DNA from: an uncultured Lachnospiraceae bacterium
GTDB lineage: Bacteria > Bacillota > Clostridia > Lachnospirales > Lachnospiraceae
DNA length: 64,000 bases
Assembly (NCBI GenBank): GCA_910585715.1
Contig: CAJUEX010000013.1
Span: 801-64,800 of the forward strand
Direction: 5' to 3'
How positions within the stretch are numbered: position 1 is the first letter of the stretch; each line of letters begins with the position of its first letter. The notes beneath the pieces were generated by a model, which searched no databases, had not been told where the DNA came from, and saw nothing but the letters and a program-made list of their open reading frames with translations. The position numbers were made by a program, and so were the translations under genes. Positions 6,121 through 59,684 of the stretch are shown one piece after another.

Positions 6121-6388
6121 GCTTTCATTGTTTACTCTTGCTCTTATGCTTGTTCTAGTTTACCACAAATTGCTTTTTAGGGGAATATGGGATTTTCAGG
6201 AGAAGGAACGAAAGCTTTTGGATATTTTTTAATATCTATCGACTTACTCTGTTAAATGCCATATAATGAATTCATGCAGTCATCAAAAACAATAACTTAC
6301 ATAAGAGAATGCAAAAGCATGGGGAACTGGTTAAGATTAAAAGAGACTCTCTCTTAGTAAATATAAACAATGTAAGGAGAAAACTAAT

Positions 6389-14308: not shown

Positions 14309-14995
14309 TTATTTCTTCATTTTCAACAAGGCTTCATAGGCCGCCTGCTGTTCCGCATTTTTCTTGTTCCTGCCGGCGCCCGTGCCAATCTGTTTATTTT
14401 GAAGCATTGCAGCCACATGAAACAGCTTATTGTGTTCCGGGCCCTCTTCCTTTAAAAGGACGTAGGTAAGCTCTCCCGCCTTCTTTTCCTGAACAAGCTC
14501 CTGAAGGATGGATTTGGCATCATAAAATAATTTTTTATGCTCTAAATCGTTTAAGACAAATCTTTTGATAAATTCTTTGGCACATTCCATGCCTCCGTCC
14601 AGATAAATAGCGCCAATCACCGCTTCTACCGAGTCTGCAATAATGGATTCCCGCTCTCTGCCTCCGGTTGCTTCTTCGCCCTTTCCGAACAGCATATATT
14701 TTCCAAGCTCTAATTCCCTGCCTGTAATGGCAAGAGCCTGTTCGCAGACAATGCTTGCCCTTGTTTTAGTCAGGTCACCCTCCGACATTTCCGGGTCTGC
14801 AAAATAAAGAAATTCACTGCTGACTAACTCTAATACTGCATCCCCTAAAAACTCTATCCGTTCATAATGAGCCTGCTGGTTGATTTTCTGCTCATTAGTA
14901 AAGGAGCTGTGAGTCATAGCCTGCTTTAAAAACCTTTTATCCTGAAAGGTATATCCTATTTTTTCTTCTAACCTGCTTAATGAATATTCTTCCAT
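14309..14995 (-). CDS. rnc: Ribonuclease III
   Basis: 228 aa. The RNase III signature ERIEFLGDAVLEL is followed by a C-terminal dsRBD. Confidence 0.95.
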   Translation of the reverse strand: MEEYSLSRLEEKIGYTFQDKRFLKQAMTHSSFTNEQKINQQAHYERIEFLGDAVLELVSSEFLYFADPEMSEGDLTKTRASIVCEQALAITGRELELGKYMLFGKGEEATGGRERESIIADSVEAVIGAIYLDGGMECAKEFIKRFVLNDLEHKKLFYDAKSILQELVQEKKAGELTYVLLKEEGPEHNKLFHVAAMLQNKQIGTGAGRNKKNAEQQAAYEALLKMKK

Positions 14996-15157
14996 TTTAC
15001 TTCATTCCCCGTTTTTCTTTGGGTAGTTACCTCCTTATTACTTCTGGATTTTATATGTTCTGTGAAATCCATATCCCGATTCCTGTGGGAGAAACTGTCT
15101 GAACTGTTATTTAAAATTCGCACATAACATACAATAGGGTGCCGCAATGCGGCACCT

Positions 15158-26834: not shown

Positions 26835-26923
26835 CGTATCACCTGTTTTTTTCTGATACCTTTGCTATCATACACTAAGGTTATGATGGTGTCAAGTATT
26901 TTTTCTTGACAGATAGATGATCG

Positions 26924-27147
26924 GTAACAGTTCAGCCCTCCGCTTTCCACCACAGGAATCAGAACCGGCGGCAGGCAGAAAGTGATTTCTAAAGGAGTCC
27001 TTATAAAAGCGCCAGCGCTTAGCGAGGTATTTTCGAGCTTAGCACTGTTGCGTTTTTATCAGAGCGAGAGCGGGACGACGTAGAAACACTTTCTGCCTGC
27101 CGCCGGTTCTGATTCCTGTGGTGGAAAGCGGAGGGCTGAACTGTTAC
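26924..27147. repeat. Long palindromic intergenic element, copy A: 61-bp perfect inverted arms around a 102-nt core
   Basis: 26924-26984 is the exact reverse complement of 27087-27147; I checked this base by base. The core contains ...ggagtccttataaaagcgcc...gttgcgtttttatcagagcgagagcggg..., which is homologous to the core of copy B. Confidence 0.9.
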
Positions 27148-27162
27148 ATCTATTACGATAAA

Positions 27163-30368: not shown

Positions 30369-31084
30369 ACGTATTTCTCTCCGTTTCTGGTAATCATTAT
30401 TATTTGTCTTATCAAAAGCAGCAGGAATATGCCTGCCGCAAGCAGCCAACCGCCTATATACTCCATTTCATAAATAACCGGCTTCCTATAGGCGGCTGTT
30501 CCAAAGGCAATCATCACCCCGGCGCTGATGGCAAAGCACACAAAGGAAATATCCCCTGCCTTCATATAACAGACTGTAAGCAGCGTGAGAAAGCTGGTTA
30601 TCAGATAAGGTAGCAGCAGATAAATTCCCGCCTGCCAGTAAGTTACCTTATGCTCCATTGCCAGAAACGGCGCCAAAAGCAGAAATAAAAGCATATTCAT
30701 CATTCCCAGAAGATTGATTCGGATAAGAAGCACATTTCCCAGAGAAAATCTGGTGGACATTTCCAGTTCTTCCATCCGGTACTGCCTGGAACGGATAAGC
30801 TCCATGGAAGCAAACAGGGCAAACATGGGGGTAAGGGCGGAAATCATGCCGATTTCCTGTCTGTTTCCAAAAAGCAGCCTGTCCTTCTGGCATAACAGGA
30901 ACAACAGGAAGAAAATCCCCACGGAGCCTATCCAGGTTCTCTTTTTTATGAATTTTGCCTGTAACAGCCATAGCTGCCATTTGGGGATTCTCGGATAAGA
31001 CAGTGATTTTAAAAACTCTTCCCTTCTGTCCGGAAGAGGGGCTTCAAATGCTTGTAACAGCCCGTTTTTCAGCTTTTTATTCAT
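30344..31084 (-). CDS. Putative anti-sigma factor, polytopic membrane protein
   Basis: The start is taken at MNKKLKNGLLQAFEAP..., in an ATGA overlap with the sigma gene stop. A short cytoplasmic N-terminus is followed by about 6 TM helices. The function is inferred from its position after an ECF sigma gene. Confidence 0.5.
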   Translation of the reverse strand: MNKKLKNGLLQAFEAPLPDRREEFLKSLSYPRIPKWQLWLLQAKFIKKRTWIGSVGIFFLLFLLCQKDRLLFGNRQEIGMISALTPMFALFASMELIRSRQYRMEELEMSTRFSLGNVLLIRINLLGMMNMLLFLLLAPFLAMEHKVTYWQAGIYLLLPYLITSFLTLLTVCYMKAGDISFVCFAISAGVMIAFGTAAYRKPVIYEMEYIGGWLLAAGIFLLLLIRQIIMITRNGEKYVWNFQLTE

Positions 31085-31560
31085 AGAAAATCCTCCTTTT
31101 TTAAATATTTTTTTAATTCCTGACATGCTTCTTTTGTTTTGCGGTAAACAACAAACCTCGAGCAATTTGTTATCCTGCTGATTTCTTCTACCGACACTTG
31201 GTTTACATAACGAAGCAGCAACAGCTCCTGCTTCTCTTCCGTAAGATGGTTCAGCGCCTGCTTTAGTGCAATGGCAGAATCTAAATCCATTTCCTTTCCG
31301 GCATCTGTCTTTTGCAACAGCTTTCCCTCATCCGGAAGCTCTCTTATGCTGCTTTTCTGTTTTCTGAAATAGTCCACACACAGATTCTTTGCAATAGTAT
31401 ATAAATATGCCAAAGGCTTTCCCCGGCTGATATAGGTGTTTTGGCTGAAGTAGCGCAGGAAGGTTTCCTGGGTCAGGTCTTCTGCCAGATGGGGGTTTTG
31501 GACTTTAAAATAGCAGTATCTGTAGATTTTGTCGTATTGTTCTTCTATTTCCAATGGCAC
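31081..31560 (-). CDS. ECF-type RNA polymerase sigma-70 family factor
   Basis: 159 aa with a GTG start and AGGAGG upstream. Region 2 reads AEDLTQETFLRYF...YLYTIAKNLCVDYFRK. Region 4 reads LLLLRYVNQVSVEEISRITNCSRFVVYRKTKEACQELK. Confidence 0.85.
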   Translation of the reverse strand: MPLEIEEQYDKIYRYCYFKVQNPHLAEDLTQETFLRYFSQNTYISRGKPLAYLYTIAKNLCVDYFRKQKSSIRELPDEGKLLQKTDAGKEMDLDSAIALKQALNHLTEEKQELLLLRYVNQVSVEEISRITNCSRFVVYRKTKEACQELKKYLKKEDFL

Positions 31561-31611
31561 ATGGGCTTCCTCCTTTCTTTTGCGGGTGGAGTTTTTGCTG
31601 TTTTCCGCTAT

Positions 31612-31752
31612 CTATTTTCTAATATCTATTTTCTAATATCTGTTTTCTGCTTTTTGTTTTCTGCTTTTTGTTTTCTGCTTTTTGTTTTCTGCTTTTTGTT
31701 TTCTGCTTTTTGTTATTTGTTTTTTGTTTACTGCTTTTATTTTCTGATTTTA
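31612..31752. repeat. Tandem repeat tract of 14-bp units upstream of the ECF sigma gene
   Basis: ctattttctaatat occurs twice (31612-31639). gttttctgcttttt occurs as 5 perfect copies (31642-31711). Degenerate units gttatttgtttttt, gtttactgctttta and so on follow. Confidence 0.9.
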
Positions 31753-31917
31753 TTTTAGATTATTTTTCTTTCATTAGGTATAACGTTTTTTATGAGGATT
31801 ATGTGCGGAGAATTTTTGTGACAGATTGCTTTTGAATAAAATCATTTATAATATAAGATGATTTATGTATGGAATTGAGAAATTAAAAAAGCAGGTGGGA
31901 AGTATGATGAGAGAACA

Positions 31918-32064
31918 CAGGAGCCGCCATAACATTCTATATTCTTCCGAACACACTTATGCCCTGCGAAGACACAACAGCCCCAGCGCACCGGAATACG
32001 GTGCGTTAGGACTGGCGACTTTGCCAGGGTCCGGAAAAAATATGGAATGCTATGACGGCTCCTG
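31918..32064. repeat. Possible third, degenerate member of the palindromic element family (copy C)
   Basis: The outer 14-nt arms are caggagccgccata (31918-31931) and tatgacggctcctg (32051-32064), with one mismatch. An inner hairpin cgcaccg-gaata-cggtgcg is followed by ttag, resembling the central hairpin of copy B. The flank cacagga resembles the arm of copy A. Confidence 0.35.
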
Positions 32065-32097
32065 CTGGGTATTGAAAAAATTTTTCTATTATCTTAA

Positions 32098-32379
32098 TTA
32101 TTCAGCAAATAAATCTGCATGTGTTCCTGTATCAATCAATGTTAGTGTCAGTACATCATCTTCTATAAGATATATTAACAGCCAGTCGGGTTGTATATGA
32201 CACTCTCGATATCCTTTATAATTTCCAATCAGGGCATGATCCCTGTTTTTAGCTTCCAAAGGGATTTTATGCAACAATTTCTCTACAATATCCTGCAACA
32301 AAGAAATGTCCAGCCCTCGCTTTTTTGCAAGTTTCAATCCCTTTTTAAACTTTCCTGTAAGGATTAATTCATAATTCAT
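32098..32379 (-). CDS. yafQ: Type II toxin, YafQ/RelE family mRNA interferase
   Basis: 93 aa. FKKGLKLAKKRGLD...NRDHALIGNYKGYRECHIQPDWLLIY...DTGTHADLF matches the YafQ pattern. It overlaps the antitoxin gene by 4 nt. Confidence 0.8.
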   Translation of the reverse strand: MNYELILTGKFKKGLKLAKKRGLDISLLQDIVEKLLHKIPLEAKNRDHALIGNYKGYRECHIQPDWLLIYLIEDDVLTLTLIDTGTHADLFAE

Positions 32380-32648
32380 ATGTCCAAATCCTCCAATGCT
32401 TCTGAAAAGCTGCTATACCGTTTTGCATTGGGATCCTTGCTGAGCTGTTTTGCTTCCTCCATAGCTTCCATTACTTCTGGCTTATATCTGGGAATTTCCA
32501 CGCTAAAGGGAAGTCCGCCCCGCATAATGGATTGTCTCAAAAACATATTCACAGCGCTGGACATATCAATTCCAAGCTGGTTAAAAAGTTCTACTGCCTG
32601 TTTCTTAACATCCTCTTCTATTCTTATCTGAGTTTGCACAGTGGCCAT
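32376..32648 (-). CDS. dinJ: Type II antitoxin, DinJ/RelB family
   Basis: The start is taken at MATVQTQIRIEEDVKKQAVELFNQLGIDMSSAVNMFLRQ, a ribbon-helix-helix pattern typical of DinJ. Confidence 0.8.
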   Translation of the reverse strand: MATVQTQIRIEEDVKKQAVELFNQLGIDMSSAVNMFLRQSIMRGGLPFSVEIPRYKPEVMEAMEEAKQLSKDPNAKRYSSFSEALEDLDI

Positions 32649-32754
32649 TTCATCACCTTCTTTCTTTGTTTTCATTGTAAACCAAATTGTTTACGCTGTC
32701 AATTGTTCAAGTGTAAAAAGGCTAATTCTTACTTTCTATTTTATTCAATCCTGC

Positions 32755-34650
32755 CTATTTTATTTTAATTTTCACTTTTGACCTTTTGTTGCTTCCGTCC
32801 GTGGACCTTGCGGTGATGGTGACGTTTTTTCCTTTTCCGGCCTTTTTGGCGGTTATCTTTCCCTTACTGTTGACAGTGGCATATTTATTGTTGGAGCTTG
32901 TCCATTTCAAGGATTTATTGGCATTCTTTCCGGTAGTCCCTACGGTTGCCTTTATGGTCATGGTCTTTCCGGTCTTTAAGGTCTTCCCGGATGCCTTCAG
33001 CTTTATACTTTTGACAGCATGCTGCATAATCTTTATCTTTATCCGGGCTTTTTTTGCACTTCCATCCTGTGCCGCTGCGATAACGGTTACCTGCTTTCCA
33101 ATGCCTGCTTTCTTCAAGGTTATGGTGCCATTCTTGTCCACAACGGCATATTTTCCATTGCCGGTTTCCCATTTAACAGCATTGTTTGTGGCATTTTCCG
33201 GAGTGAGCTTCAGGGTCAGTTTTACTTTCTTTCCGGCAGCCAGCTTTCCGGAAGGTGCCTGAATGGAAAGCTTTTGCACCTTTATTTCATAAATCTTTAT
33301 GGAAGTCTCTGACACATCACTTATCCGATAGCCCCTGCATACTGCTACCGCCTTAATGGTCATGTTTCGGTCTATGGTGATTTCTCCCGTGTAACGGATA
33401 CTTGCCGTGGTTGGCATGGTTCCGTCCGTTGTATAGTATATGTCTGCCTCCTTAGTCCCACAGCTTAAGGCCAGCTTTGTATTTTTCACCACTGTGCTTC
33501 CTGAAGAAAGTGAGGCAGTGGGTATTGCCGCTTTTTCATCCCCTCCCACGCCACTGGTACCATCATTTGTCATAAACCAGTGGGCAGATGACAAATTGAT
33601 ATGCAGAGCCGGACAGATGCCTGGACCGGAAAGAATCCAAAGATTACCTTCTAATCTAACATCACCGCCAACCCTATACACATATGCTGCTGAATGACTG
33701 GGTTCTCCGCAGCCCGGAGAACCCAGCCACCAATAGCGATCTATCCCTCTGGCTTTGGAATAGTCACTGGCATCTATCCTTCTGGTCTTAGAGTTTATTT
33801 TATAATCACTGCAAAATCCATACGCTTCATTGGTCACTTCCCCTATAGACAGCAAATAGACGTTATCCTCTGTATCCTTTCCGCCTGCTGTGCCGTACTC
33901 CGGATTATCCTCATTCACTACCCTGTGGGCTACAATAGCTCTTTGTTCTTCGCTGTTAAAAGCAGCATTATAAAAATAGTCATTCAGCCAATTCCTTTTT
34001 GGGCTTTCTTCCCACTGATTTCTACTGCCATAACCGCAATCAATTGCTGTATCCGCTACTACAAACAGGGTATTCCCGTTATTTTCCAACACCTTCCATT
34101 TGATTCGTTCCCATTTAAAATAAAGGTATCCATTGTTAGCTACATCATCCTCATACTCCTCATAATCTGCCTCATATTCGCTAATCCTGCGGTACTTGCT
34201 TCCATTGACCCATACATCTTCTATTCCTGCCTCTATCTCTATTCCGCAAACAGGAATAGCCTTATCAATGGCTGCTCTCGTTGCCCCGTCTGTAACCTCG
34301 CTTTGGGGGTAACTTCCAAAGTATATAAAATCAAAGTCCGTATCATCTAAATCACCATTTTCTTTGTTGCAGTGGTGAACCGGGTTTGCCGGACCTGTTG
34401 TTGCCGCTCCCGCCTGTATTTCAGACTGACCTTGTCCTGAAACGGCAGCTTCAATAGTTTCTTCCGATTCCATTTCCTCACTTTCAGGAAATTGGTTTTC
34501 GCTGACTGTTGGAATTGCTTCTCCTGTCACTTCATTCCCGCTGACTGCCCCATTTGCAGCAAATGCTATATTCGTCTGGAACAACAGGAGGATTGACAAC
34601 AGACATGTCATGACAACTCTTCCTGAACTTTTCTGTCTTTTCCTGTTCAT
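32755..34650 (-). CDS. Secreted multidomain protein, paralog 1: signal peptide, acidic linker, DUF6273-like core, CHB_HEX_C-like domain, 2 x Big_2
   Basis: The start is taken at MNRKRQKSSGRVVMTCLLSILLLFQTNIAFA, with GGAG upstream. Core motifs are PANPVHHC, YFGSYPQSEVTD, YFKWERIKWKVL, WWLGSPG and ICPALHINLSS. ADIYYTTDGTMPT...MTIKAVAV is chitobiase C-terminal-like. Two lysine-rich Big_2 repeats end in TITARSTDGSNKRSKVKIKIK. Confidence 0.8.
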   Translation of the reverse strand: MNRKRQKSSGRVVMTCLLSILLLFQTNIAFAANGAVSGNEVTGEAIPTVSENQFPESEEMESEETIEAAVSGQGQSEIQAGAATTGPANPVHHCNKENGDLDDTDFDFIYFGSYPQSEVTDGATRAAIDKAIPVCGIEIEAGIEDVWVNGSKYRRISEYEADYEEYEDDVANNGYLYFKWERIKWKVLENNGNTLFVVADTAIDCGYGSRNQWEESPKRNWLNDYFYNAAFNSEEQRAIVAHRVVNEDNPEYGTAGGKDTEDNVYLLSIGEVTNEAYGFCSDYKINSKTRRIDASDYSKARGIDRYWWLGSPGCGEPSHSAAYVYRVGGDVRLEGNLWILSGPGICPALHINLSSAHWFMTNDGTSGVGGDEKAAIPTASLSSGSTVVKNTKLALSCGTKEADIYYTTDGTMPTTASIRYTGEITIDRNMTIKAVAVCRGYRISDVSETSIKIYEIKVQKLSIQAPSGKLAAGKKVKLTLKLTPENATNNAVKWETGNGKYAVVDKNGTITLKKAGIGKQVTVIAAAQDGSAKKARIKIKIMQHAVKSIKLKASGKTLKTGKTMTIKATVGTTGKNANKSLKWTSSNNKYATVNSKGKITAKKAGKGKNVTITARSTDGSNKRSKVKIKIK

Positions 34651-34714
34651 ATAATTTCTCCTTTTACAAAAAATACGATACATTTACGTTTCATGGAATA
34701 TGTATGCCTATATG

Positions 34715-34873
34715 CTATTTACTTTTCATATTACAGATTCCTTTTTCTATTGTAACTCCGCTCATGCCTGCTAATAATAAAAATAATCCTGTAGAGGACT
34801 TTGAAAAACTCATCCAAATAAAGCTTGCTATCAGCCCGGCAATTCCCACAATAAGTAATGCATATTTTTTCAT
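34715..34873 (-). CDS. Possible 52-aa two-TM small membrane protein between paralogs 2 and 1
   Basis: My translation gives MKKYALLIVGIAGLIASFIWMSFSKSSTGLFLLLAGMSGVTIEKGICNMKSK, with AGGAGA 6 nt upstream of the ATG. It is below the track length cut-off. Confidence 0.35.
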   Translation of the reverse strand: MKKYALLIVGIAGLIASFIWMSFSKSSTGLFLLLAGMSGVTIEKGICNMKSK

Positions 34874-34883
34874 ATCAGCTCTC

Positions 34884-36560
34884 CTATTCTATCCTAATTT
34901 TGACTTGTGCTTTTTTATTGCTGCCATCCGTGGACTTGGCGGTAATGGTAACCGTCTTTCCTTTTCCGGCCTTTTTGGCGGTTACCTTTCCCTTACTGTT
35001 GACAGTGGCATATTTCTTATTGGAGCTTGTCCATGTAAGGGACTTATTAGCGCTCTTTCCGGTAGTTTTCACCGTTGCTTTTATGGTCATGGTTTTTCCG
35101 GCTTTTAATTTTTTAGCAGGAGCCTTCAAGGTTATTTTTTTCACTGCGTGCTTCATGATTTTAAACTTACAGGAAGCTTTTACCTGACTGCCGTCTAAAG
35201 CTGATGCCGTAATGGTCACGTTCTTTCCGGCGCCTGCTTTTTTTATGGTTACTTTCCCCGTTTGGTCTACGGAAGCATATTGGGAATTGCTGCTTTGAAA
35301 GCTTACGGCTTTATTGTCAGCGTTTTCCGGAAATACCTGCAGGGTCAGGGTTACTTTTTTTCCTGCTGCAAGTTTTCCTGAGGGAGCTGTTAACGTCAGC
35401 TTCGTTACCTTTGTCTCTTTTGCTTTACCGGGATCATCTGACACCGTTGTTTCCTCTCCCCCATTTCCACTGGTACCGTCATCTGTCATGAACCAGACAT
35501 CAGAAGATAAATCAATATGCAAAGCCGGGCAGACACCTTTGTCCCTAAGTTCAACCTTTTTATCGATACACCACCCTTTTATTCCAACACACTCAACAGC
35601 ATCGTAATAGTAGCGAGAACGCAGCCAATAATCGCCGTTGTATCTGTAATCAGCCGAACTGCTTCTGGTTGCACCTCTGGCATTGGCATAATCACTCACT
35701 TTCGCTCTTCTGCTCATGGAATATACTGAGGTATCATCACAAAACCCATATTCCGGATTGGATACTTCTGTCTTGGATAATATATAAATATCATTACTTG
35801 TTGCCCATTCATTTTCAGTTATGACTGTCTGCATTACAATGGCACTTTGCTCCCTGTAATTAAAAGCCGAGCTGCAAAAGCTGTTGTTCAGCCAACTCCT
35901 GATTTCGCTGATCGCCCAACCCTTATAGCTGCTTTTGGTATCAAAAATTTTACAATCTATCGCCTTATCCGCTGTTACAAATAAGGTTCTCCCATTATTT
36001 TTCAGCACCTTCCACTTAATCCGTTCCCATTTAAAATAACGAAAGCCACTATGCTTCACCTCATCAAAATAAGCATCATTATTGGTGTCCGCTTTACTGA
36101 TTCTCCGGTACTTGATTCCGTTTACCCATACATCAATCCCTGTCTCTGCTGCTTTGGATGTGGTGATTGCCTTTTCAATGGCAGCTATAGTGGCGCTGTC
36201 TGTTACCTCACTTTGTGGATAGCTTCCAAAATATACATAGCTAAAATCCGTATAGTCTGAGCCGTCATCTTTTTTGGTACAGTGATGAACCGGATTTGCA
36301 GGACCCGCTGCCCCTGCCTGAATCTCAGTCAGACTTTCACCTGAAACAGCTTCTTCCCCTTCTAAGGGCTGATTTTCGCTGACTGTGCCAATTGCCTCCT
36401 CTCCTGCCGGCTGATTCCCGCTGATTGTTCCAATTGCCTCCTCTCCTGCCGGCTGATTCCCGCTGATTGTTCCAGCCGTGGCAAATGCCACATTTGCCTG
36501 AAACAACAAAAGGAGAGACAACAGAAGTGCGGTTATGTTTATGCTGCGTTTCTTATTCAT
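34884..36560 (-). CDS. Secreted multidomain protein, paralog 2: signal peptide, repeat linker, DUF6273-like core, 2 x Big_2
   Basis: 558 aa. The signal peptide is MNKKRSINITALLLSLLLLFQANVAFA. It has the same core motifs (PANPVHHC, YFKWERIKWKVL, YWLRS, VCPALHIDLSS) and the same Big_2 pair as paralog 1, but no CHB_HEX_C-like domain. Confidence 0.8.
   Translation of the reverse strand: MNKKRSINITALLLSLLLLFQANVAFATAGTISGNQPAGEEAIGTISGNQPAGEEAIGTVSENQPLEGEEAVSGESLTEIQAGAAGPANPVHHCTKKDDGSDYTDFSYVYFGSYPQSEVTDSATIAAIEKAITTSKAAETGIDVWVNGIKYRRISKADTNNDAYFDEVKHSGFRYFKWERIKWKVLKNNGRTLFVTADKAIDCKIFDTKSSYKGWAISEIRSWLNNSFCSSAFNYREQSAIVMQTVITENEWATSNDIYILSKTEVSNPEYGFCDDTSVYSMSRRAKVSDYANARGATRSSSADYRYNGDYWLRSRYYYDAVECVGIKGWCIDKKVELRDKGVCPALHIDLSSDVWFMTDDGTSGNGGEETTVSDDPGKAKETKVTKLTLTAPSGKLAAGKKVTLTLQVFPENADNKAVSFQSSNSQYASVDQTGKVTIKKAGAGKNVTITASALDGSQVKASCKFKIMKHAVKKITLKAPAKKLKAGKTMTIKATVKTTGKSANKSLTWTSSNKKYATVNSKGKVTAKKAGKGKTVTITAKSTDGSNKKAQVKIRIE
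36388..36471. repeat. Perfect 42-bp tandem duplication inside paralog 2
   Basis: 36388-36429 is identical to 36430-36471 (ccaattgcctcctctcctgccggctgattcccgctgattgtt). It encodes the duplicated peptide ISGNQPAGEEAIGT. Confidence 0.95.
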
Positions 36561-36577
36561 ACTCCCTATTCCTTTGC

Positions 36578-38434
36578 TTATTTTATAGTAATTTTTACGG
36601 TTGCTTTTTTATTGCTTCCGTCCGTGGATATTGCAGTTATGGTCACGCTCTTTCCTTTCCCTGCCTTTTTTGCCGTTACCCTGCCCATACTGCTGACGGT
36701 TGCATATTTTTTATTGGAGCTTTTCCAGATTAAGGACTTATTTGCATTTTTTCCGGTAGTTTTCACAGCTGCCTTTATGGTCATGGACTTTCCCGCTTTC
36801 AAAGTTTTCTTTTGTGCTTTTAGTTTTATGTTCTTTACTGCATGTTTCATAATTTTAAAGCGATAAGCGGATTTCACCTTACTGTTTCCACAAGCTGATG
36901 CCGTTATGGTAACACTCTTTCCAATTCCCGCTTTTTTTACTGTGACAGTTCCATTTTTATCTACGGAAGCATATTTCTTATTGCTGCTCGTCCATTGCAC
37001 TGATGCGGCAGATGCCCCTTTGGGAGTCGTCTTTAAAGTCAGCCTGACTTTTTTTCCTGCCGCCAGTTTTCCGGAAGGTCCTGTGACGGAAAGCTTCTTT
37101 AAAGCTTTTACTGTAATTGTGATGGAAGCGTTGCAGGCAGCGCCACCGGATGTATAAGACACGGTCAGGGTTTTCTTTCCGGGGGTATTCATATTGATTT
37201 CTGATGCATTCGTGATATATTTACCGGATTTCAATTCTTTTGCTGGATGTTGTTTATAAAAAGCAGTTATCTTCAGGTCATCGATAGTCAGAGCTTCTCC
37301 TGCGTAGTAGACAGTTTTTTCTTTAGAAGCCTGAAGGCTTACAGGTATCTTTTCCTCGCCCGCTTCCCCACTGGTACCATCATCTGTCATAGACCAAAGG
37401 GCAGAGGACAGATTAATTTGCAGCGCCGGGCAAATACCATAGTTCGAGGAATTAAATGCCCCAATGTCCAGCTTTCCATTAACTGCCATGACATCATTGC
37501 CATTTTGAGCGGGAGAGCGCAACAACCAGGCGCAGCCGTCTTTTCTGCTTCCTTTTGCATAGGTATAACTGCTTGGCTGAACTATCCTGCTCATAGATGC
37601 TTCATTATAACTACAGAATCCGTATTGTTCATTTGTCACTTCTCCTATGGACAAAAGCCAGACTTTATCATTTGTGTTATTTCCACCTGGCGTACCATAG
37701 TCCGGATTATTATCATTCACCACTTTCTGTGCCACAACGGCATTTTGCTCACTGTTACTAAAAGCCGTGTGATAAAAACTGTCGTTTAACCACTTCCTTA
37801 AGGTGCAGGTTTCCCATGTAACATATCGCCCTTCTTCATCGAAAGGTTTATAATCAACTGCTTTGTCTGCCACTACCAATAAAGTCTTCCCATCATTCTT
37901 AAGTACTTTCCACCGGAGTCTCTCCCATTTAAAATAGCGGTAGCCTTTATTCGTTGGTTCCCAGTCAAACCATGAATTACCAGAATCCTTTTTACTGATT
38001 CGACGGTACTTAATACCATTCACCCATACATCCTTCCCTACTTCTGCCGCTGTTCCGGATGCGATAATTGCCTTGTCAATGGCATCTATGGTTGCTTTAT
38101 CCGTCACCTCACTTTGGGGATAGCTGCCAAAATAGATATAGCTAAACTCTGTGGTATGGCGACTGTGATCATGAATCGGATTTACAGGACCTGTAATGTC
38201 TCCTGCCTGTATTCCCGGCAGGCTTTGGCCGGAAATGGTAATTTCCGGTTCGTTTCCGCTGACTGCATCATTTTCCCCCAATATAAAATCAGAGGAAGAA
38301 GTGTCTGCTGCTTCCTCCCCTTCTCCTGCCCTGTTATCACTGACTGTCTGTGCAAAAGCAGGCAGTCCTCCCGTGGAAAACAATAGCACAGCCGCTAATA
38401 AAAGCGGCAAAAACCGTATGTTCTTTCTTTTCAT
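36578..38434 (-). CDS. Secreted multidomain protein, paralog 3: signal peptide, DUF6273-like core, group-3-like Ig domain, 2 x Big_2
   Basis: 618 aa. The signal peptide is MKRKNIRFLPLLLAAVLLFSTGGLPAFA. It has the core motifs PVNPIHDH, YFKWERLRWKVL, WLLRSP and ICPALQINLSS. The middle domain KTLTVSYTSGGAACNASITITV looks like a bacterial Ig-like group 3 domain. It lies only 17 nt upstream of paralog 2. Confidence 0.8.
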   Translation of the reverse strand: MKRKNIRFLPLLLAAVLLFSTGGLPAFAQTVSDNRAGEGEEAADTSSSDFILGENDAVSGNEPEITISGQSLPGIQAGDITGPVNPIHDHSRHTTEFSYIYFGSYPQSEVTDKATIDAIDKAIIASGTAAEVGKDVWVNGIKYRRISKKDSGNSWFDWEPTNKGYRYFKWERLRWKVLKNDGKTLLVVADKAVDYKPFDEEGRYVTWETCTLRKWLNDSFYHTAFSNSEQNAVVAQKVVNDNNPDYGTPGGNNTNDKVWLLSIGEVTNEQYGFCSYNEASMSRIVQPSSYTYAKGSRKDGCAWLLRSPAQNGNDVMAVNGKLDIGAFNSSNYGICPALQINLSSALWSMTDDGTSGEAGEEKIPVSLQASKEKTVYYAGEALTIDDLKITAFYKQHPAKELKSGKYITNASEINMNTPGKKTLTVSYTSGGAACNASITITVKALKKLSVTGPSGKLAAGKKVRLTLKTTPKGASAASVQWTSSNKKYASVDKNGTVTVKKAGIGKSVTITASACGNSKVKSAYRFKIMKHAVKNIKLKAQKKTLKAGKSMTIKAAVKTTGKNANKSLIWKSSNKKYATVSSMGRVTAKKAGKGKSVTITAISTDGSNKKATVKITIK

Positions 38435-38460
38435 TTGTATTCCCCCTTCTTAAAATTTTA

Positions 38461-38868
38461 TTATTTCAAATAGTCATTTAACTCATCAATCTTCACTACC
38501 GTCATGCCATGTTCCGGATTGCCAAGCACTAACAGCTGGTCTCCCTTTTGGATATGTAATACCTTTCTTGCCTTCTGGGGAATGGGCATCAAGCCCCCTT
38601 CCCCTACTTTTACAATTCCAAACACATATTTCCCGGTCTGTGCGGCAAGCTCTCCTTCCCCTATCCGGCGTTCTCTTTCGCTTAATGTCAGTTCGTCCAG
38701 GGAGCTTTCATACAAATCCATCAGTTTTTTGCACTTTACTACATCGGGCAGGGTTTCACCCGCTTCCCATTTTGCAATGGTCTGGCGAGAAACGTCTATT
38801 CTCTCTGCCACATACTCCAATGAGAAGTTTTTTTCTTTTCTCAGCTTCTTTAGTCTTTTTCCTATCAT
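38461..38868 (-). CDS. XRE-family HTH regulator fused to a SpoVT/AbrB-like domain
   Basis: 135 aa. The HTH is LKKLRKEKNFSLEYVAERIDVSRQTIAKWEAG. The C-terminal part GIVKVGEGGLMPIPQKARKVLHIQKGDQLLVLG is looped-hinge AbrB-like. Confidence 0.8.
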   Translation of the reverse strand: MIGKRLKKLRKEKNFSLEYVAERIDVSRQTIAKWEAGETLPDVVKCKKLMDLYESSLDELTLSERERRIGEGELAAQTGKYVFGIVKVGEGGLMPIPQKARKVLHIQKGDQLLVLGNPEHGMTVVKIDELNDYLK

Positions 38869-38898
38869 GTCTTTTCCGTCTCCTGCCTTACTACCTAA

Positions 38899-39020
38899 AA
38901 TTATATAAATTGCACAAAACTATTACAATAAACTTTCCTTAACATATATGTCATGAAAAGTTACAGTCATAACTATGTGCCTTCTTACCAGTAATATCCC
39001 TTAGGCAGTAAAAAGGTTGC
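38899..39020. repeat. Duplicated intergenic module, copy 1 (upstream of the XRE-AbrB gene)
   Basis: About 120 bp are clearly alignable by eye with 41286-41417. Shared blocks include ttatataaatt.cac.aaac.attacaataaactttccttaaca and ctaatatccc...aaaaaggttgc. Confidence 0.85.
38900..38928 (-). promoter_or_regulatory. Predicted sigma-A promoter for the XRE-AbrB gene and possibly the paralog 3-2-1 genes downstream
   Basis: The minus strand has TTGTAA (38928-38923), a 17-nt spacer and TATAAT (38905-38900). This lies about 30 nt upstream of the start codon and its AGGAGA ribosome-binding site. Confidence 0.5.
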
Positions 39021-39076
39021 ATAGCAAATAAAAAAATTATGACAGGACCACTCACTTGGTGGAAGTTGTAAGAAAA

Positions 39077-41161
39077 TTATTTTATCTGAATCTTCACCGC
39101 CGCCTTTTTATTGCTCCCGTCCGTGGATTTGGCGGTAATAGTAACCGTCTTTCCTTTCCCGGCTTTTTTGGCGGTTACCTTTCCCTTACTGCTGACGCTT
39201 GCATATTTTTTGTTGGAACTTGTCCATTTCAGGGATTTGTTGGCATTCTTTCCGGTGGTTTTTACAGTGGCTTTTATGGTCATGCTCTTTCCGGCTTTTA
39301 AAGTCTTCTTTGGCGCTTTCAGCTTTATGGTTTTTACGGCATGTTTCATAATTTTTATTTTTATGGACGTCTTTTTGCCGCTTCCGTCCTGGGCTGTTGC
39401 TGTTATGGTTACCGTTTTCCCTATGCCTTTCTTTTTCAGGGTTATCTTTCCGTTTTTATCCACAGCGGCATACTTTTTATTGCTGCTTTTCCATTTGACG
39501 GCTTTATTTCCGGCATTTTCCGGGGTGAACTTCAGGGTCAGTTTCACTTTCTTTCCGGCGGCAAGTTTTTTGGAAGGGGCTTTAATAGTGAGCTTTTGGA
39601 CTTTCTGTCTGCTGCTGCCATTATTTTGACTGCCGTTTCCATTGTTGCTTCCATTTCCATTATTGTTTCCATTTCCGTTATTTCCTCCACTGCCGCTCTT
39701 TTTCAGCGTGTAAGTAAACTCTGCCACGTCGCTTTGACGGCAGCTCCGGCTTACCGCAATCGCCTTAACGGTCATGTTCCGGTTTATTGTAATTGTTCCC
39801 GAATAAAGAGTGCCTGCCGTGGTAGGCGTAGTTCCGTCTGTAGTATAGTATATACTGGCTCCGGGGGTGGCACAGCTTAAGCTCAGCTTTGTGTTTTTTG
39901 CAACACTGCTTCCTGTCGGAAGGGAAGCTGTGGGCATGGCTGCCTTTTCGTCCCCGCCCTCGCCGCTGGTTCCGTCATCTGCCATGTACCAAAGGGCAGA
40001 TGAAACGTTTATATGCATGGCCGGACAGACGCCGCATATGTTCCCTAATACAATAGGTCCGCCAGAATATATGACGGCCCCCCATTGGACCACATACATA
40101 GCACGTTCACGGCAATCCGACGTCACACCTGGAGCGAGAGGCGAACGCAACCACCATGTGCAGGAATCCTTATCAACAGTTCCAACACTACTACTCTGAC
40201 GATCATTCTCATAATGACTTACACCTCTTGTAATAGCATAGCTGCTTGCTTTCATCATACGGCTTCGGCTTCCGGCTTCCTTTTTAGTACAAAATCCATA
40301 TTCTCCATCCGACACTTCTTCTGCAGACAAAAGATATATCTTATCATCCGTATCATCATTTGTATTATCATTTGTATGGTATTCGTAACTGATATTTTCT
40401 ACAGTATGCATTATAACAGCGCTTTGCTCAATATTGCTAAAGGCTGTATTGTAAAAGCCGTTATTCAGCCAGTTCCTCATAGTGCTGGTTTTCCATACAT
40501 TATTTCTATATTTTTCATTAAAACGTTTACAGTCAATTGCCTTATCCGCTACTACGAACAAAGTATTTCCGTCATTTTTCAGTACCCTCCACTTTATCCG
40601 TTCCCATTTAAAATAACGGTAGCCATTGTTTGGCACATCATCAAAATATCCGTCATAAGTTGTATCATCTTTGCTGATTCTCCGGTACTTAATTCCGTTT
40701 ACCCATACATCCGTCCCTGCATCCGCTGGTATTCCGGATGTGCTGACGGCCTTATCAATAGCTGCTATGATGGCGCCGTCTGTCACCTCGCTCTGTGGAT
40801 AGCTTCCAAAGTATATGTAGCTGAAATCCGTATAGTCTAAATTACTTCCCTCTTTTATACAGTGGTGGACCGGATTTGCCGGTCCGGTTACTGCCCCTGC
40901 CTGTATTTCCGGCAGGGTCTGCCCGGAAACGGTGTCTTCCTCTTCGTCCGGACTTTCCCCGGCTCCCGGTTCTTCATTTGTACAAGGTCCGTTTTCGCTG
41001 ACTGTTATTGCCGGCTCTTCCTCCCTTGCTGTCTCATTGCTGTCGGCTATGCCACTTGAAGCAAAAGCCGTGCCTGTCTGGAACAGCAGAAGGATGGACA
41101 GCAATACTGCCAAAACTGCCTTTTCTTTTTTCCTCTGTAACCATTTTTGTTTCCTTTCCAT
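39077..41161 (-). CDS. Secreted multidomain protein, paralog 4: signal peptide, acidic linker, DUF6273-like core, CHB_HEX_C-like domain, Asn/Gly linker, 2 x Big_2
   Basis: 694 aa. It has a signal peptide (...LAVLLSILLLFQTGTAFA) and the same core motifs. ASIYYTTDGTTPT...MTVKAIAV is present. The low-complexity linker reads SGSGGNNGNGNNNGNGSNNGNGSQNNGSS. Confidence 0.8.
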   Translation of the reverse strand: MERKQKWLQRKKEKAVLAVLLSILLLFQTGTAFASSGIADSNETAREEEPAITVSENGPCTNEEPGAGESPDEEEDTVSGQTLPEIQAGAVTGPANPVHHCIKEGSNLDYTDFSYIYFGSYPQSEVTDGAIIAAIDKAVSTSGIPADAGTDVWVNGIKYRRISKDDTTYDGYFDDVPNNGYRYFKWERIKWRVLKNDGNTLFVVADKAIDCKRFNEKYRNNVWKTSTMRNWLNNGFYNTAFSNIEQSAVIMHTVENISYEYHTNDNTNDDTDDKIYLLSAEEVSDGEYGFCTKKEAGSRSRMMKASSYAITRGVSHYENDRQSSSVGTVDKDSCTWWLRSPLAPGVTSDCRERAMYVVQWGAVIYSGGPIVLGNICGVCPAMHINVSSALWYMADDGTSGEGGDEKAAMPTASLPTGSSVAKNTKLSLSCATPGASIYYTTDGTTPTTAGTLYSGTITINRNMTVKAIAVSRSCRQSDVAEFTYTLKKSGSGGNNGNGNNNGNGSNNGNGSQNNGSSRQKVQKLTIKAPSKKLAAGKKVKLTLKFTPENAGNKAVKWKSSNKKYAAVDKNGKITLKKKGIGKTVTITATAQDGSGKKTSIKIKIMKHAVKTIKLKAPKKTLKAGKSMTIKATVKTTGKNANKSLKWTSSNKKYASVSSKGKVTAKKAGKGKTVTITAKSTDGSNKKAAVKIQIK

Positions 41162-49433: not shown

Positions 49434-50591
49434 ATGAAAACGATAAGAACAGCAATAGACTTTCCAAATCCATCCTATCCGTTAGAGCATATAGACGAAC
49501 TTTCCAAAATTTTATTCGTTGATATTGAAACAACAGGTTTTGCAGCAAAATCCTCTTATTTATATTTAATCGGCTGCCTGTGTTATGAGGAAGGAGGCTG
49601 GCAGTTAATACAGTTCTTGGCAGAGGACTACATTGAAGAGCCTTTTATCTTACAGGAATTTTTAGTTCTTTGTAAGGAATACCACACTTTAATTCATTAT
49701 AACGGCAACAATTTTGACCTGCCTTATTTAAGGCAGAAATGCGAACAATTCGGGCTAAAGCCTCCCTTTGACCAGATAAATACGGATAATATGGATAATC
49801 CGGAAAATACAGAACGCACAGCCATGAACGGGATTGACATTTACAAGCGTATTTCCGGCTTTAAAAATATTCTTCATCTGGAAAACTGCAAACAGAAAAC
49901 GCTGGAAAACTTCCTTGGAATTTCCAGAGAAGACAAATACAACGGAGGAGAACTGATTTCCATTTATCACGATTATGCTAAAACAAAAAAACCTGAATTA
50001 TTGGAGCTTCTTCTGCTTCATAACAAGGAGGACATGCAGGGTATGTTCGCATTGCTTCCCATATTATCCTATATGGACATACTGCTTGTTCCTTTCCGGG
50101 TGGTAAAGGTTCAGGCAAATCATTACGACAATATATCCGGCACCCGCTCCTATGAGGTGTTAATGAAAATAAAATTCCACACCGCCTTCCCAAAACCAAT
50201 AGCCATCCACAAAAACGGCTGTCATTTCAGCGGTCAGGGCAAAGAAGGCTATTTAAAGGTTCCCTGCCTGAAAGAAGAACTGAAATTCTTTTATTCAAAC
50301 TACAAGGATTACTACTACCTTCCCATGGAAGATACGGCACTGCACAAATCCGTAGCCGCCTATGTAGACAAAGACTTCCGCAAACAGGCAACCGCAGCTA
50401 ACTGCTACACAAAAAAACAAGGCACCTACCTCCCGGAATGGTCTCCCCTCTTTACCCCCATCTTCAAAAAAAGCTATCAGGATAACGACCTGTTCTTTGA
50501 ACTGACCGAAGAAATGAAACGCAGCCCGGAAGAATTTACAAAATACGCCCTCCACATCATGGATATGCTGATTCATGAAGGAAAAAAATAA
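49434..50591 (+). CDS. RNase H-like / YprB-type predicted exonuclease domain protein
   Basis: The start is taken at MKTIRTAIDF, with AGGAGG upstream; the track ORF starts 27 codons earlier. ILFVDIETTGF and HYNGNNFDLPYL are DEDD/RNase_H_2-like motifs. Confidence 0.7.
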   Translation: MKTIRTAIDFPNPSYPLEHIDELSKILFVDIETTGFAAKSSYLYLIGCLCYEEGGWQLIQFLAEDYIEEPFILQEFLVLCKEYHTLIHYNGNNFDLPYLRQKCEQFGLKPPFDQINTDNMDNPENTERTAMNGIDIYKRISGFKNILHLENCKQKTLENFLGISREDKYNGGELISIYHDYAKTKKPELLELLLLHNKEDMQGMFALLPILSYMDILLVPFRVVKVQANHYDNISGTRSYEVLMKIKFHTAFPKPIAIHKNGCHFSGQGKEGYLKVPCLKEELKFFYSNYKDYYYLPMEDTALHKSVAAYVDKDFRKQATAANCYTKKQGTYLPEWSPLFTPIFKKSYQDNDLFFELTEEMKRSPEEFTKYALHIMDMLIHEGKK

Positions 50592-50626
50592 TAACGGTTC
50601 AGACAGCATCTCACCCACAGGAATCG

Positions 50627-50683
50627 GAATACAGATTTGACAAAATCTATAGCCAGAATACGGATTTGACAAAATCTATAGCC
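50627..50683. repeat. Two tandem 28-bp direct repeats
   Basis: gaatacagatttgacaaaatctatagcc (50627-50654) and gaatacggatttgacaaaatctatagcc (50656-50683) differ at one position. Each contains the small palindrome agattt-gaca-aaatct and a TTGACA hexamer. Confidence 0.9.
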
Positions 50684-50695
50684 TTTCGATACACA

Positions 50696-50843
50696 GTAGG
50701 AACCGGCAGATGATAGAGAAGTCTTGGAGGCCTTAATGAAAACGCCGGTACTAACGCACCGTATTTTGGTGCGTTAGTACCGCTGCGTTTTCATAGAGCG
50801 AGAGCGTGCCCCCAAGACTTCTCTATCATCTGCCGGTTCCTAC
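50696..50843. repeat. Long palindromic intergenic element, copy B: 32-bp perfect inverted arms, nested perfect stems and a conserved core
   Basis: 50696-50727 is the exact reverse complement of 50812-50843. Inside it, atgaaaacgc (50736-50745) pairs with gcgttttcat (50785-50794). Also ggtactaacgcacc (50747-50760) pairs with ggtgcgttagtacc (50768-50781). The core motif agagcgagagcg is shared with copy A. Confidence 0.9.
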
Positions 50844-50935
50844 GTCCTCCCCACCAAAGCCCCCCATACCTAAAGAAAAGCGCCCCCAGAGCCTAATTCC
50901 AAGCCCCAAAGCCGCTTTTTCCCAACCTTCCATTA

Positions 50936-57791: not shown

Positions 57792-59684
57792 CTATTTAAT
57801 TTTAATCTTCACCTTCGCCTTTTTATTACTTCCATCTGTAGAAGTTGCTGTAATGGTAACCGTTTTTCCTTTTCCTGCTTTCTTTGCTGTTACCTTTCCT
57901 TTCTTATTTACGGTAGCATATTTGGTATTGGAGCTTTGCCATTTCAATGTCTTATTCACGCTCTTTCCGGTAGTCTTCACCGTCGCCTTGATGCTCATGC
58001 TCTTTCCTGCTTTTAAGGACTTTGCAGAAGCCTTCAGCTTAATGCTCTTTACCGCATGCTTCATGATTTTTATTTTTATGGAAGCCTTCTTGCCGCTTCC
58101 ATCCTTTGCCTCTGCCGTGATAGTTACGGACTTGCCGGCTCCTGCTTTTTTCAGAGTGACTTTTCCGTTTTTGTCTACAGTCGCATATTTTTCGTTGCTG
58201 GTCTTCCATGTCACTGCTTTGTTAGAAGCGTTTTCCGGAGTTACGTCTAAAGTGAGTTTCACTTTCTTTCCTGCGGCAAGCTTCTTGGACGGAGCATGGA
58301 TTTCTATACCCTGTACTCCTTTAACCTCTTCCTTGCTGTTTTCTTGAATCTTATAAGAGAATTGTGCCACCCCGCTAGCTTTATAGCCCTCACATACAGC
58401 AATTGCCTTAATTGTTACATCATGTTCAAGAATAATTGCTCCTGCATAAACCATACTGTCTGTAGTAGGTTCTGTTCCATCAATTGTATAGTATATGTTA
58501 GCTCCGCTAGTTGCACAAGTTAAAAAAAGTTTTGTATTTTTTACCACACTGCTTCCTGAAGGAATTGTAGCTTCAGGCCTAGCTGCTTCTTTTTTGTCAG
58601 TATCATCCTCTGCTAAAGACCAGCTATCGTATATTTGATTTATGTTCAAAACCGGACATACTCCAAGTTCACCGGCTTCAACAAAAGTTCCCCCGTATGC
58701 TACATACCCATTTTTGTCCACAAAAGCAGCATAATCGCTATGAGCGCCGGAAGAACGCAACCACCACATTTCATTACTATCAAATCCCATACGCGCACCT
58801 CTGGCACAGGCATAATCAGTATTTTTTATTATCCGACTCAGGGAATAAGTATTGAAATTGCTGCAAAATCCATATCTATCATTAACTATCTCATGCAAGG
58901 ATAACATATAAACCTTATCATAAGTAGCATATCCACCTTCCGTCTCATAACGGGGGTTATCTTCATTTGCTATTCTTTTTTCTACAATTGCTTTTTTTTC
59001 GTTATCGCTAAAAGCTGTATCATAAAAACTGCCATTCAGCCAACTTCTAATCGTACTGGATTCCCATGTAACATCTGCATGATTATTATTATATTGTTGA
59101 TTGTCCAATGCTTTATCTGCTACCACAAGCAACTGATAGCCATCATTATTTAACACTTTCCATCGAATTTTCTCCCATTTAAAATAGCGATAAGGCTTAT
59201 CCCCGAAATATGCATAATTATATACATCCTCGTTGCTAATCCTCCGATATTTTGCACCATCTATCCATACATCTATGCCATTTTCCGCTGGCTTTCCATT
59301 TGTACTAATAGCCTCATCAATACGTGCTGTCATAGTGCTATCCGTCACTTCTTGCTGTGGATAGCTCCCAAAATATATATAACTGAATTTCGTATAATCT
59401 GTACCATCATCTAATTTTGTGCAGTGATGAATCGGATTAGCAGGTTTTCCTATTCCTGTACGCAAATCATTCTCACTTACATTATTTACTGAAAGCCCTT
59501 CCTGCGGCTGGCTGTTGATATCTTCATCCCCATTATCACTTTGTTCCAGATTTCCCATTACTTCATTTTCACTAATGGTATTTGCAAATACAATAACATC
59601 TTGAACGTTAAAAAAAATTATTGCCACTAACAGCATTGATAAAGCTTTCCTCACATTTTTCTTATTATTACCCTGTTCCTTCAT
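57792..59684 (-). CDS. Secreted multidomain protein, paralog 5: signal peptide, DUF6273-like core, CHB_HEX_C-like domain, 2 x Big_2
   Basis: 630 aa. It has the same motif series (PANPIHHC, YFGSYPQQEVTD, YFKWEKIRWKVL, WWLRSSG, VCPVLNINQ), ANIYYTIDGTEPT...VTIKAIAV and two Big_2 repeats ending TITATSTDGSNKKAKVKIKIK. Confidence 0.8.
   Translation of the reverse strand: MKEQGNNKKNVRKALSMLLVAIIFFNVQDVIVFANTISENEVMGNLEQSDNGDEDINSQPQEGLSVNNVSENDLRTGIGKPANPIHHCTKLDDGTDYTKFSYIYFGSYPQQEVTDSTMTARIDEAISTNGKPAENGIDVWIDGAKYRRISNEDVYNYAYFGDKPYRYFKWEKIRWKVLNNDGYQLLVVADKALDNQQYNNNHADVTWESSTIRSWLNGSFYDTAFSDNEKKAIVEKRIANEDNPRYETEGGYATYDKVYMLSLHEIVNDRYGFCSNFNTYSLSRIIKNTDYACARGARMGFDSNEMWWLRSSGAHSDYAAFVDKNGYVAYGGTFVEAGELGVCPVLNINQIYDSWSLAEDDTDKKEAARPEATIPSGSSVVKNTKLFLTCATSGANIYYTIDGTEPTTDSMVYAGAIILEHDVTIKAIAVCEGYKASGVAQFSYKIQENSKEEVKGVQGIEIHAPSKKLAAGKKVKLTLDVTPENASNKAVTWKTSNEKYATVDKNGKVTLKKAGAGKSVTITAEAKDGSGKKASIKIKIMKHAVKSIKLKASAKSLKAGKSMSIKATVKTTGKSVNKTLKWQSSNTKYATVNKKGKVTAKKAGKGKTVTITATSTDGSNKKAKVKIKIK

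Follow-up and report, generated by a model that had tools for sequence, protein, structure and literature searches.

A family of foldback miniature transposons in Lachnospiraceae, probably moved by an ISBst12/IS66-type transposase

The 64,000-nt stretch of DNA analysed here (the window) comes from an uncultured Lachnospiraceae bacterium (contig CAJUEX010000013.1, positions 801 to 64,800) and contains a 224-bp palindromic element, named copy A, upstream of the ylxM-ffh genes. We regard copy A as a likely non-autonomous DNA transposon, a miniature inverted-repeat transposable element (MITE); it would belong to a large, recently mobile Lachnospiraceae family that is moved by an ISBst12/IS66-type transposase and whose arms are kept complementary by copying at the DNA level. 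The family has conserved terminal inverted repeats (TIRs), target duplications of fixed length, a precise empty site, small size, many copies and no coding capacity. The first-pass annotation, made from the sequence of the window, had argued that such an element is not MITE-like; that judgement is reversed by the conserved TIR, the 8-bp duplications and, within the window itself, an empty site. No transposase gene lies near copy A, as is expected for a non-autonomous element. The element is not a new RNA class, an RNA gene or a switch.

Copy A (26924–27147, no strand assigned) is complete and of type A in nature, with the order TIR, arm, core, arm and TIR; its boundaries are given by the TIR that it has in common with 25 other bounded copies. 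The left TIR, GTAACAGTTCAGCC, occupies 26924–26937 on the + strand and the right TIR, which reads GGCTGAACTGTTAC on the + strand, occupies 27134–27147 on the − strand; type-A copies conserve both at their outer ends. The left arm (26924–26984, +) is 61 nt in length and is the exact reverse complement of the right arm (27087–27147, +), so the 61/61 pairing claimed at first sight is correct; with a repeat finder the arms reach 64 nt at 98% (26924–26987 and 27084–27147), with 96 nt between them. The weaker pairing that had been described further outward also exists, but it amounts to only 6–7 bp (ATAGAT/ATCTAT) beyond a 5-nt bulge. Between the arms lies an asymmetric, conserved core of ∼102 nt (26985–27086, +), which is common to copies B and C of the window and to all family members. 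The minimum free energy of the 271-nt copy A region is −175.5 kcal/mol on the + strand (z = −21.2) and −165.5 kcal/mol on the − strand (z = −20.5), and none of the 200 dinucleotide shuffles was as stable on either strand.

The ends of the elements were set by aligning each left flank with the reverse complement of the right flank. Type-A copies end in GTAACAGTTCAGCC...GGCTGAACTGTTAC, as seen in copy A and the 25 other bounded copies. The 8-bp flanks are at least 7/8 identical in 14 of the 26 TIR-bounded elements and perfect in 9, compared to 0/26 in an offset control. The window also contains an empty target site (approximately 6208–6218, no strand), which is uninterrupted and matches the filled site of a sister strain; there, a 224-bp type-A copy (L059:3076-3299) is flanked by the duplication AAAGTTTC. 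In related species, whose YlxM proteins are 78–94% identical, only 105–128 nt are present upstream of ylxM and the element is missing, which indicates that copy A is a lineage-specific insertion. The upstream gene differs between species, and the site of copy A is therefore a synteny break. An IS630/Tc1-like MITE with a TA duplication was considered as well, as TA precedes ACAGTTCAG; it was ruled out by the 8-bp duplications and the GTAAC end.

Two further kinds of outer end were observed. On the same core and inner arms, a second terminus class (CACGGAAATCAAT/CACGGAAATCAATTTTCAG) is accompanied by a 9-bp duplication in all five copies (L006:7215-7450, L013:5102-5338, L017:7002-7237, L025:1952-2186 and L058:5594-5845), four of the duplications being perfect and one 8/9, which implies a second transposase specificity. 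ISLre2-type elements are reported to make 9-bp repeats (PMC8024623). The B-type ends, GGCNTTTCGATACACA...GTCCCCTTATCCAAATCC, have no clear duplication.

These duplications bear directly on another route of mobility, in which an HUH enzyme of the REP/REPIN-RAYT or IS200/IS605-like kind would mobilise the element as single-stranded DNA and use the hairpin as its recognition structure. The long hairpin with its conserved asymmetric bulge is of the right kind, complementarity is required within each copy, and mini-hairpins of the d(GCGNRAGC) type are stable in DNA. However, HUH elements make no target duplication, whereas duplications of 8 and 9 bp together with conserved TIRs are hallmarks of DDE transposases; no strand bias was found either, and the ends match those of IS66-family insertion sequences (ISs). 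We therefore consider HUH mobilisation very improbable.

The resemblance of the ends to those of IS66-family elements is close. Terminal repeats that begin with GTAA and 8-bp duplications are reported for this family (PMC11946415), and ISDge4, a member of the ISBst12 group with a single open reading frame (ORF), has the terminal sequence GTAACTGCTCAGCA and an 8-bp direct repeat (PMC12898284). One ISGka4-like IS of Geobacillus kaustophilus pHTA426 contains a single ORF that matches Pfam DDE_Tnp_IS66 (E = 1.9e-64); its terminal repeats are GTATCTATTCAGCCC and GTAACTATTCAGCCC, and its 8-bp duplication is GACGAGTT. The MITE end GTAACAGTTCAGCCC is identical to GTAACTATTCAGCCC of this IS at 13 of 15 positions and to the ISDge4 end at 11 of 14. 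Paired ends 1.5–1.9 kb apart were present at 55 of 83 metagenomic transposase loci (41–64% identity), and 10 of these 55 ISs have perfect 8-bp duplications. The consensus of their ends is GTAAC-T-(A/G)-(C/T)-TCAG-(C/G)-C, to be read with the fact that the search expression fixed positions 1, 2, 9, 11 and 12. The MITE end fits the form GTAAC-NNN-TCAG-SC; at position 6 it has an A, as do few ends of the IS set (4/110). Judged from the ends only, the cognate transposase would be of the IS66/ISBst12 type. In the mechanism that we propose, a single-ORF IS66-family (ISBst12-group) DDE transposase, encoded elsewhere, would recognise the ∼14-bp TIRs GTAACAGTTCAGCC and insert the MITE by an 8-bp staggered cut, giving rise to the target duplication. 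The interior consists of arms of ∼50–65 bp, forming a foldback around the asymmetric core of ∼100 nt. In several of the metagenomic ISBst12-group ISs (L228-L232 and L233-L312), the right terminal repeat contains the end of the transposase ORF, whose stop codon TGA belongs to ...CTGAATAGTTAC. Many of the ISs came out of assembly as separate contigs, 1.5–2 kb in length.

Other copies elsewhere in the genomes, which the first-pass annotation had proposed to look for, are abundant. When the core pattern GTTTTYAT(N)AGAGCGAGAGCG was scanned against one genome per species, at least 95 stretches were found, and all but three chance matches belong to 18 metagenome-assembled genomes (MAGs) of uncultured Lachnospiraceae/Clostridia from mouse, rumen and other gut sources. 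Among the matches listed, the MAG CANCYR01, which is ∼95–96% identical to the window, has at least 36 loci, and a Robinsoniella MAG has at least about 25. With a covariance model derived from 71 cores, ∼119 cores of full length were detected in the 769 kb of Lachnospiraceae loci; 30 of these cores do not fit the original exact pattern. The elements are 196–230 bp in length, with subfamilies of 196 and 224 bp.

A blastn search with the element against plasmid and phage collections gave no match, the core pattern had 0 matches in IMG/VR, and the terminal-repeat pattern gave only single chance-level matches there, with no inverted pairs. No Rfam 15 family matched anywhere in the window at the gathering threshold. 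Around the element, a permissive Rfam search returned only a sub-threshold match to a plant microRNA-precursor model (58 bits versus a cut-off of 90), as expected of any long hairpin. The literature on Lachnospiraceae MITEs or ISBst12-derived MITEs yielded nothing relevant. With no Rfam family and no literature match, the MITE family is previously undescribed. A small peptide was also considered, since B-type copies carry a Shine-Dalgarno-like sequence and ATG; type A has ATA at this position, and thus there is no conserved peptide or reading frame.

In the carrier MAGs, assemblies repeatedly break at the palindrome. Contigs L003, L004, L019, L073, L084 and L091 (each at position 1) start within the element, and the ends of L070 and L005 also fall within it. 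Copies other than type A often occur as adjacent pairs in opposite orientation, 30–600 nt apart, with an A+T-rich spacer; the minus copy always comes first. Such pairs were seen at L083:849-1115, L028:5842-6107, L014:2142-2540, L078:1020-1394, L068:2589-3060, L040:4804-5290, L082:4493-4944, L041:6618-7094 and L015:3940-4425.

Arms that differ between copies and remain complementary within each copy had been described for copies A and B, and this property extends to the whole family. In 25 full type-A copies, 98.4% of the arm and stem cells of the alignment are paired, and 32 of the 77 pairs are compensatory (190 cells). None of 500 shuffles reached the observed covariation, and pairing dropped to 34–44% when the partner was slid by 1–3 columns. 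Between copies, compensatory differences in both arms outnumber differences in one arm in the 196-bp subfamily (185 versus 72) as well as in the 224-bp subfamily (82 versus 52). Perfect arms were found in 25 of 78 copies; the remainder have a few mismatches.

Several of the changes involve more than one base and are mirrored in both arms. The 196- and 224-bp subfamilies are separated by a 13-nt indel that is present in both arms, and within the 196-bp subfamily a 12-nt cassette exists in alternative forms, each the same on both arms. In L005, a second outer arm was duplicated symmetrically; in L024:1081-1309 and L044, a one-sided bulge of the core was mirrored to the opposite side. Stepwise compensatory substitution could not produce such changes, whereas they can arise if one arm is copied from the other. 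Template-switch mutation at quasipalindromes is known in Escherichia coli (PMC7202029). An arm change would be copied to the other arm, either through intrastrand template switching within the quasipalindrome or through gene conversion between the arms. The complementarity may also gain from a preferential spread of perfect-armed copies; selection on a folded RNA would not be needed. We infer that arm complementarity is maintained at the DNA level by hairpin-templated conversion between the arms. The first-pass annotation had offered two explanations, selection for the folded structure or conversion of one arm by the other. The multi-base changes mirrored between arms, and likewise the symmetrised copies, agree with conversion; selection for an RNA fold does not fit the orientation counts, the mismatch counts and the lack of an Rfam family.

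The covariation of arms and core stems is strong, and it is what a structured non-coding or cis-acting RNA would show, such as an RNase III target, an mRNA stabiliser or a regulatory RNA, with mobility being secondary. The high conservation of the asymmetric core across genera, the confinement of bulge changes to GC-GNRA-GC and the replacement of tandem G·A pairs by Watson-Crick pairs in some copies point in the same direction. However, two counts argue against selection on a transcript of one strand. Orientation relative to the flanking genes was counted with a rough gene caller for the 95 copies among the matches listed; the copies between co-directional genes are split 34 versus 33, and the flanking genes are convergent for 15 copies and divergent for 13. 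Mismatches in the arms are G·T in 45 cases, A·C in 40 and others in 26. This symmetry of G·T and A·C argues against a helix of one-strand RNA, which would tolerate G·U but not A·C. In addition, the element lacks a promoter and matches no Rfam family, and its mirrored multi-base indels are out of reach of stepwise compensatory substitution. If the terminator-like core described below is efficient, RNA polymerase would stop before the second arm in either direction, which argues against a full-length RNA hairpin. We consider an RNA function as the primary one to be improbable.

The core is laid out, from arm to arm, as (A/T)AGGAGYCC, TTAT-AAAAACGCC, a co-varying hairpin, GCGTTTTTAT(C), AGAGCG-RR-AGCG and YGRCGACG. 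Residues 27003–27059 of copy A (no strand assigned) form an A-tract, an imperfect hairpin and a T-tract, which looks like an intrinsic terminator when read in either direction. Both strands fold, with −22.2 (+) and −19.3 (−) kcal/mol for copy A and −42 and −40 kcal/mol for copy B. AAAACG...CGTTTT is invariant across the 71 copies, and the pairs of the core stem co-vary. A terminator scan of copy A gave one terminator-like match, on the − strand, where the run consists of only 4 U. The hairpin is followed by an invariant bulge, AGAGCGAGAGCG (27061–27072, +), whose family form GAGC-GRRA-GCG fits a GC-GNRA-GC mini-hairpin. In the 30 copies outside the search pattern, two purines are the only variable positions of the 12-nt bulge (GAGA, GAAA, GGGA or GGAA), so that it is always GC-GNRA-GC. 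The bulge could form a mini-hairpin in RNA or single-stranded DNA, or could equally be a protein site in double-stranded DNA. A k-turn at the tandem G·A pairs was rejected, owing to a misfit in register and to the plain Watson-Crick pairs at this position in some copies.

Copy A lies 15 nt after the stop codon of a 117-residue protein gene, which is the end of the upstream operon. On the other side, the conserved ylxM promoter block (TGTCAAGAAAAAATACTTGACA, 17 nt, TATGAT) starts 13 nt from the end of copy A. The promoter itself (TTGACA, 17 nt, TATGAT; 26867–26895, −; 11/12 match) lies outside the element, just downstream on the − strand, and the block is kept in related species that lack the element. 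Between the operon end and this promoter no terminator other than copy A is visible, and copy A probably ends the transcription of the upstream operon.

This arrangement brings up the view that copies are portable bidirectional terminators or insulators selected by the host, with the core as the functional unit and various transposon ends carrying it. Besides the A-tract/hairpin/T-tract in both orientations and the position of copy A before the conserved ylxM promoter, the sharing of one core by three terminus classes and the ∼92% conservation of copy B at the same locus, next to an unrelated left flank, are in line with it. Genes that run toward an element usually end ∼0–20 nt from the arm, and gene starts are further off; this is also in line with it, but stop-proximal placement may only reflect tolerated positions or target preference. 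Moreover, 13 of the 95 listed copies and the L059 insertion lie between divergent genes, where no terminator is needed, and cheR beside copy B appears, as read from the alignment, to have its own terminator. The GAGC-GRRA-GCG bulge and the GGAGYCC segment are left unexplained as well. Host selection for termination is thus an unlikely basis of the family.

An invertible segment had also been suggested, in which the 61-bp inverted repeats would serve as recombination sites that flip the 102-nt core. Inverted repeats do surround a short asymmetric segment, and a crossover between the arms would invert it. However, a promoter scan found no sigma-70-like promoter in the core or elsewhere in copy A, no invertase is encoded nearby according to a survey of ORFs and Pfam domains, the orientation of the core is identical in all four assemblies of the window's species, and hundreds of dispersed copies with duplications are unexpected for a switch. 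The suggestion has no support from these data, and a switch is extremely unlikely. In the same four assemblies copy A is unchanged except for two single-nucleotide polymorphisms. Two of the four break inside copy A; palindromes tend to cause assembly breaks.

Several observations weigh against our reading of copy A as an IS66-moved MITE whose arms are renewed by conversion. To begin with, copy A itself has no target duplication (GATGATCG versus ATCTATTA, 2/8). Type-A copies without a duplication have arms as perfect as those of copies with 8/8 duplications, so that loss of the duplication is not simple ageing. The synteny break together with the missing duplication suggests, as the simplest reading, that the flanks of copy A were exchanged by recombination between copies. 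Second, a partner IS was not found. Loose TIR pairs 0.9–3.5 kb apart in all 769 kb of loci were separate MITEs or chance only, and tblastn of the pHTA426 transposase against the same Lachnospiraceae loci gave nothing. The same type of search against plasmids returned 190 records, with Lachnospiraceae absent from the ten commonest genera and from the 40 records listed, and none of 80 metagenomic IS loci has the exact GTAACAGTTCAG. MAGs usually drop multi-copy ISs, and a missing partner IS therefore says little. Third, older copies at one locus in two genomes have 4–5 one-arm differences (L021, 57/61; L098, 56/61), which indicates that conversion in place is not fast.

The remaining points concern the core. 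It is better conserved than the termini, of which there are three kinds (GTAAC with 8-bp duplication, CACGGAAATCAAT with 9-bp duplication, and B-type). This is the reverse of what would be expected of a family defined only by its transposase and hints at a function of the core. In addition, the GNRA-compatible variation of the bulge could reflect a single-stranded structure (RNA or single-stranded DNA) on one particular strand. In a different reading, the core of ∼100 nt is a self-contained module, composed of a bidirectional terminator, a GC-GNRA-GC mini-hairpin and a G·A helix, that was captured by at least three transposon termini and selected across Lachnospiraceae genera, with arms kept by frequent template-switch conversion. 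If true, the family would lend itself to the study of quasipalindrome conversion in nature and across whole genomes, and would be a mobile insulator by which the boundaries of operons are reshaped. We hold this reading to be possible but rather doubtful, and keep the IS66-type MITE as the preferred one.

Relatives of copy A inside the window were found by sensitive blastn followed by the covariance model. Copy B (50681–50865, +) has the same core, with short arms at 50696–50731 and 50808–50843, and differs at its outer ends (GCCTTTCGATACACA ... GTCCTCCCCACCAAAGCC), which lack the GTAAC terminal repeat. Its arms form a 36-nt repeat with 97% complementarity, and there is an inner, perfect hairpin of 15 bp. 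The homology of the centres of copies A and B that had been reported was confirmed by alignment, as was the difference of their arms, which have little in common. AGAGCGAGAGCG occurs exactly twice in the window, in copies A and B, compared to 0.18 expected, and the core model scores 122.8 bits for copy A and 104 bits for copy B. The locus of copy B is also occupied in two other genomes, the Robinsoniella MAG and CANCYR (L049 and L073), with copies that are ∼92% identical and include one compensatory pair change; the left flank is unrelated, and the flanking genes are 85% identical in the Robinsoniella MAG. Copy B is an old insertion.

Copy C, a doubtful copy D and two end modules without a core had been missed by the first-pass annotation. 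Copy C (31911–32077, −) has a related but diverged core and arms, ∼26 bp in length, that pair imperfectly; its core match (31933–32049) scores 51.1 bits (E ∼ 1e-14). Copy D (61117–61232, −) is a possible degenerate copy, with 14.1 bits and E ∼ 0.05. The core-less modules consist of TAACAGTTCAGAC...CCCACAGGAATCGG and a small hairpin, and both carry the outer arm sequence of copy A, that is, the type-A end. One of them (15040–15111, −) lies upstream of rnc, in the leader of this RNase III gene (14309–14995, −). The second (50590–50651, +) begins at the stop codon of a gene for a 412-residue, RNase_H_2/PolB-exo-like protein, and two 29-bp tandem repeats (50627–50683) follow the module.

Some neighbours of these copies were also recorded. 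Tandem arrays adjoin copy C (31585–31771; 14-nt unit, ∼8 times) and copy D (61013–61077; 13/27-nt unit), and copy C adjoins a relB/yafQ toxin-antitoxin pair (32098–32675) and a gene for an extracytoplasmic function (ECF)-type sigma factor (31081–31560). Large paralogous genes on the minus strand, with repeat blocks 65–92% identical, occupy 32755–41161 and 57792–59684; relatives of their proteins contain DUF6273 and Big_2 domains, and they look like a diversifying family of surface proteins. In one related species (L221:1-1237), a DUF6273 gene separates ylxM from a group II intron reverse transcriptase gene (RVT_1 and GIIM) that is located ∼1.8 kb upstream. This intron likewise points to the region just upstream of ylxM-ffh as a hotspot of mobile DNA and rearrangement.

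An abundant repeat of uncultured Lachnospiraceae from gut and rumen, at which metagenomic assemblies visibly break, now has a name and a model; it is linked to the single-ORF branch of the IS66 family, which has been poorly studied. Beside ylxM-ffh, copy A marks a synteny break. As copies lie at operon boundaries and have a terminator-like core, they may rewire transcription units. With their mirrored changes, the arms keep a clean record of conversion between the two halves of inverted repeats in natural bacterial genomes.

Compared to known systems, the family is most similar at its ends to ISBst12-group ISs, with which it shares the TIR (GTAAC, 3 nt, TCAG, C/G, C) and the 8-bp duplication. 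Different from these ISs, which are 1.5–1.7 kb in size and encode a transposase, the MITE is 196–230 bp in size and has no transposase gene; its interior, a perfect long foldback with a conserved core, has no similarity to the IS interior that is evident by eye, and no partner with identical ends was found. Correia elements of Neisseria, ERIC/IRU of enterobacteria, and RUP and BOX of Streptococcus pneumoniae are likewise small, non-coding, multi-copy and intergenic repeats with TIRs. They fold into long hairpins and can affect the transcription or termination of their neighbours, and Correia and RUP duplicate TA. Their sequences and hosts are unrelated to those of the MITE, which duplicates 8 bp; in the MITE, moreover, conservation is highest at the centre, arms and also termini are variable, and multi-base arm changes are mirrored. 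REP/REPIN-RAYT systems are alike in being palindromic intergenic repeats with complementarity kept across copies. REPINs have conserved arms, variable loops, no TIR with target duplication and a linked HUH transposase; the MITE differs from them in its target duplications of 8 and 9 bp. Bidirectional intrinsic terminators also place a G+C-rich hairpin between an A-tract and a T-tract, which gives a U-run on either strand, but the module of the MITE is located inside a mobile foldback and has a long interrupted stem and an additional invariant 12-nt bulge. Finally, template switching or arm conversion at quasipalindromes perfects inverted repeats and copies multi-base changes between arms (PMC7202029). 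This is a mutational process and not an element family; as far as sequence patterns can tell, the indels and the cassette mirrored between the arms of the MITE, and its symmetrised cores, agree with it.

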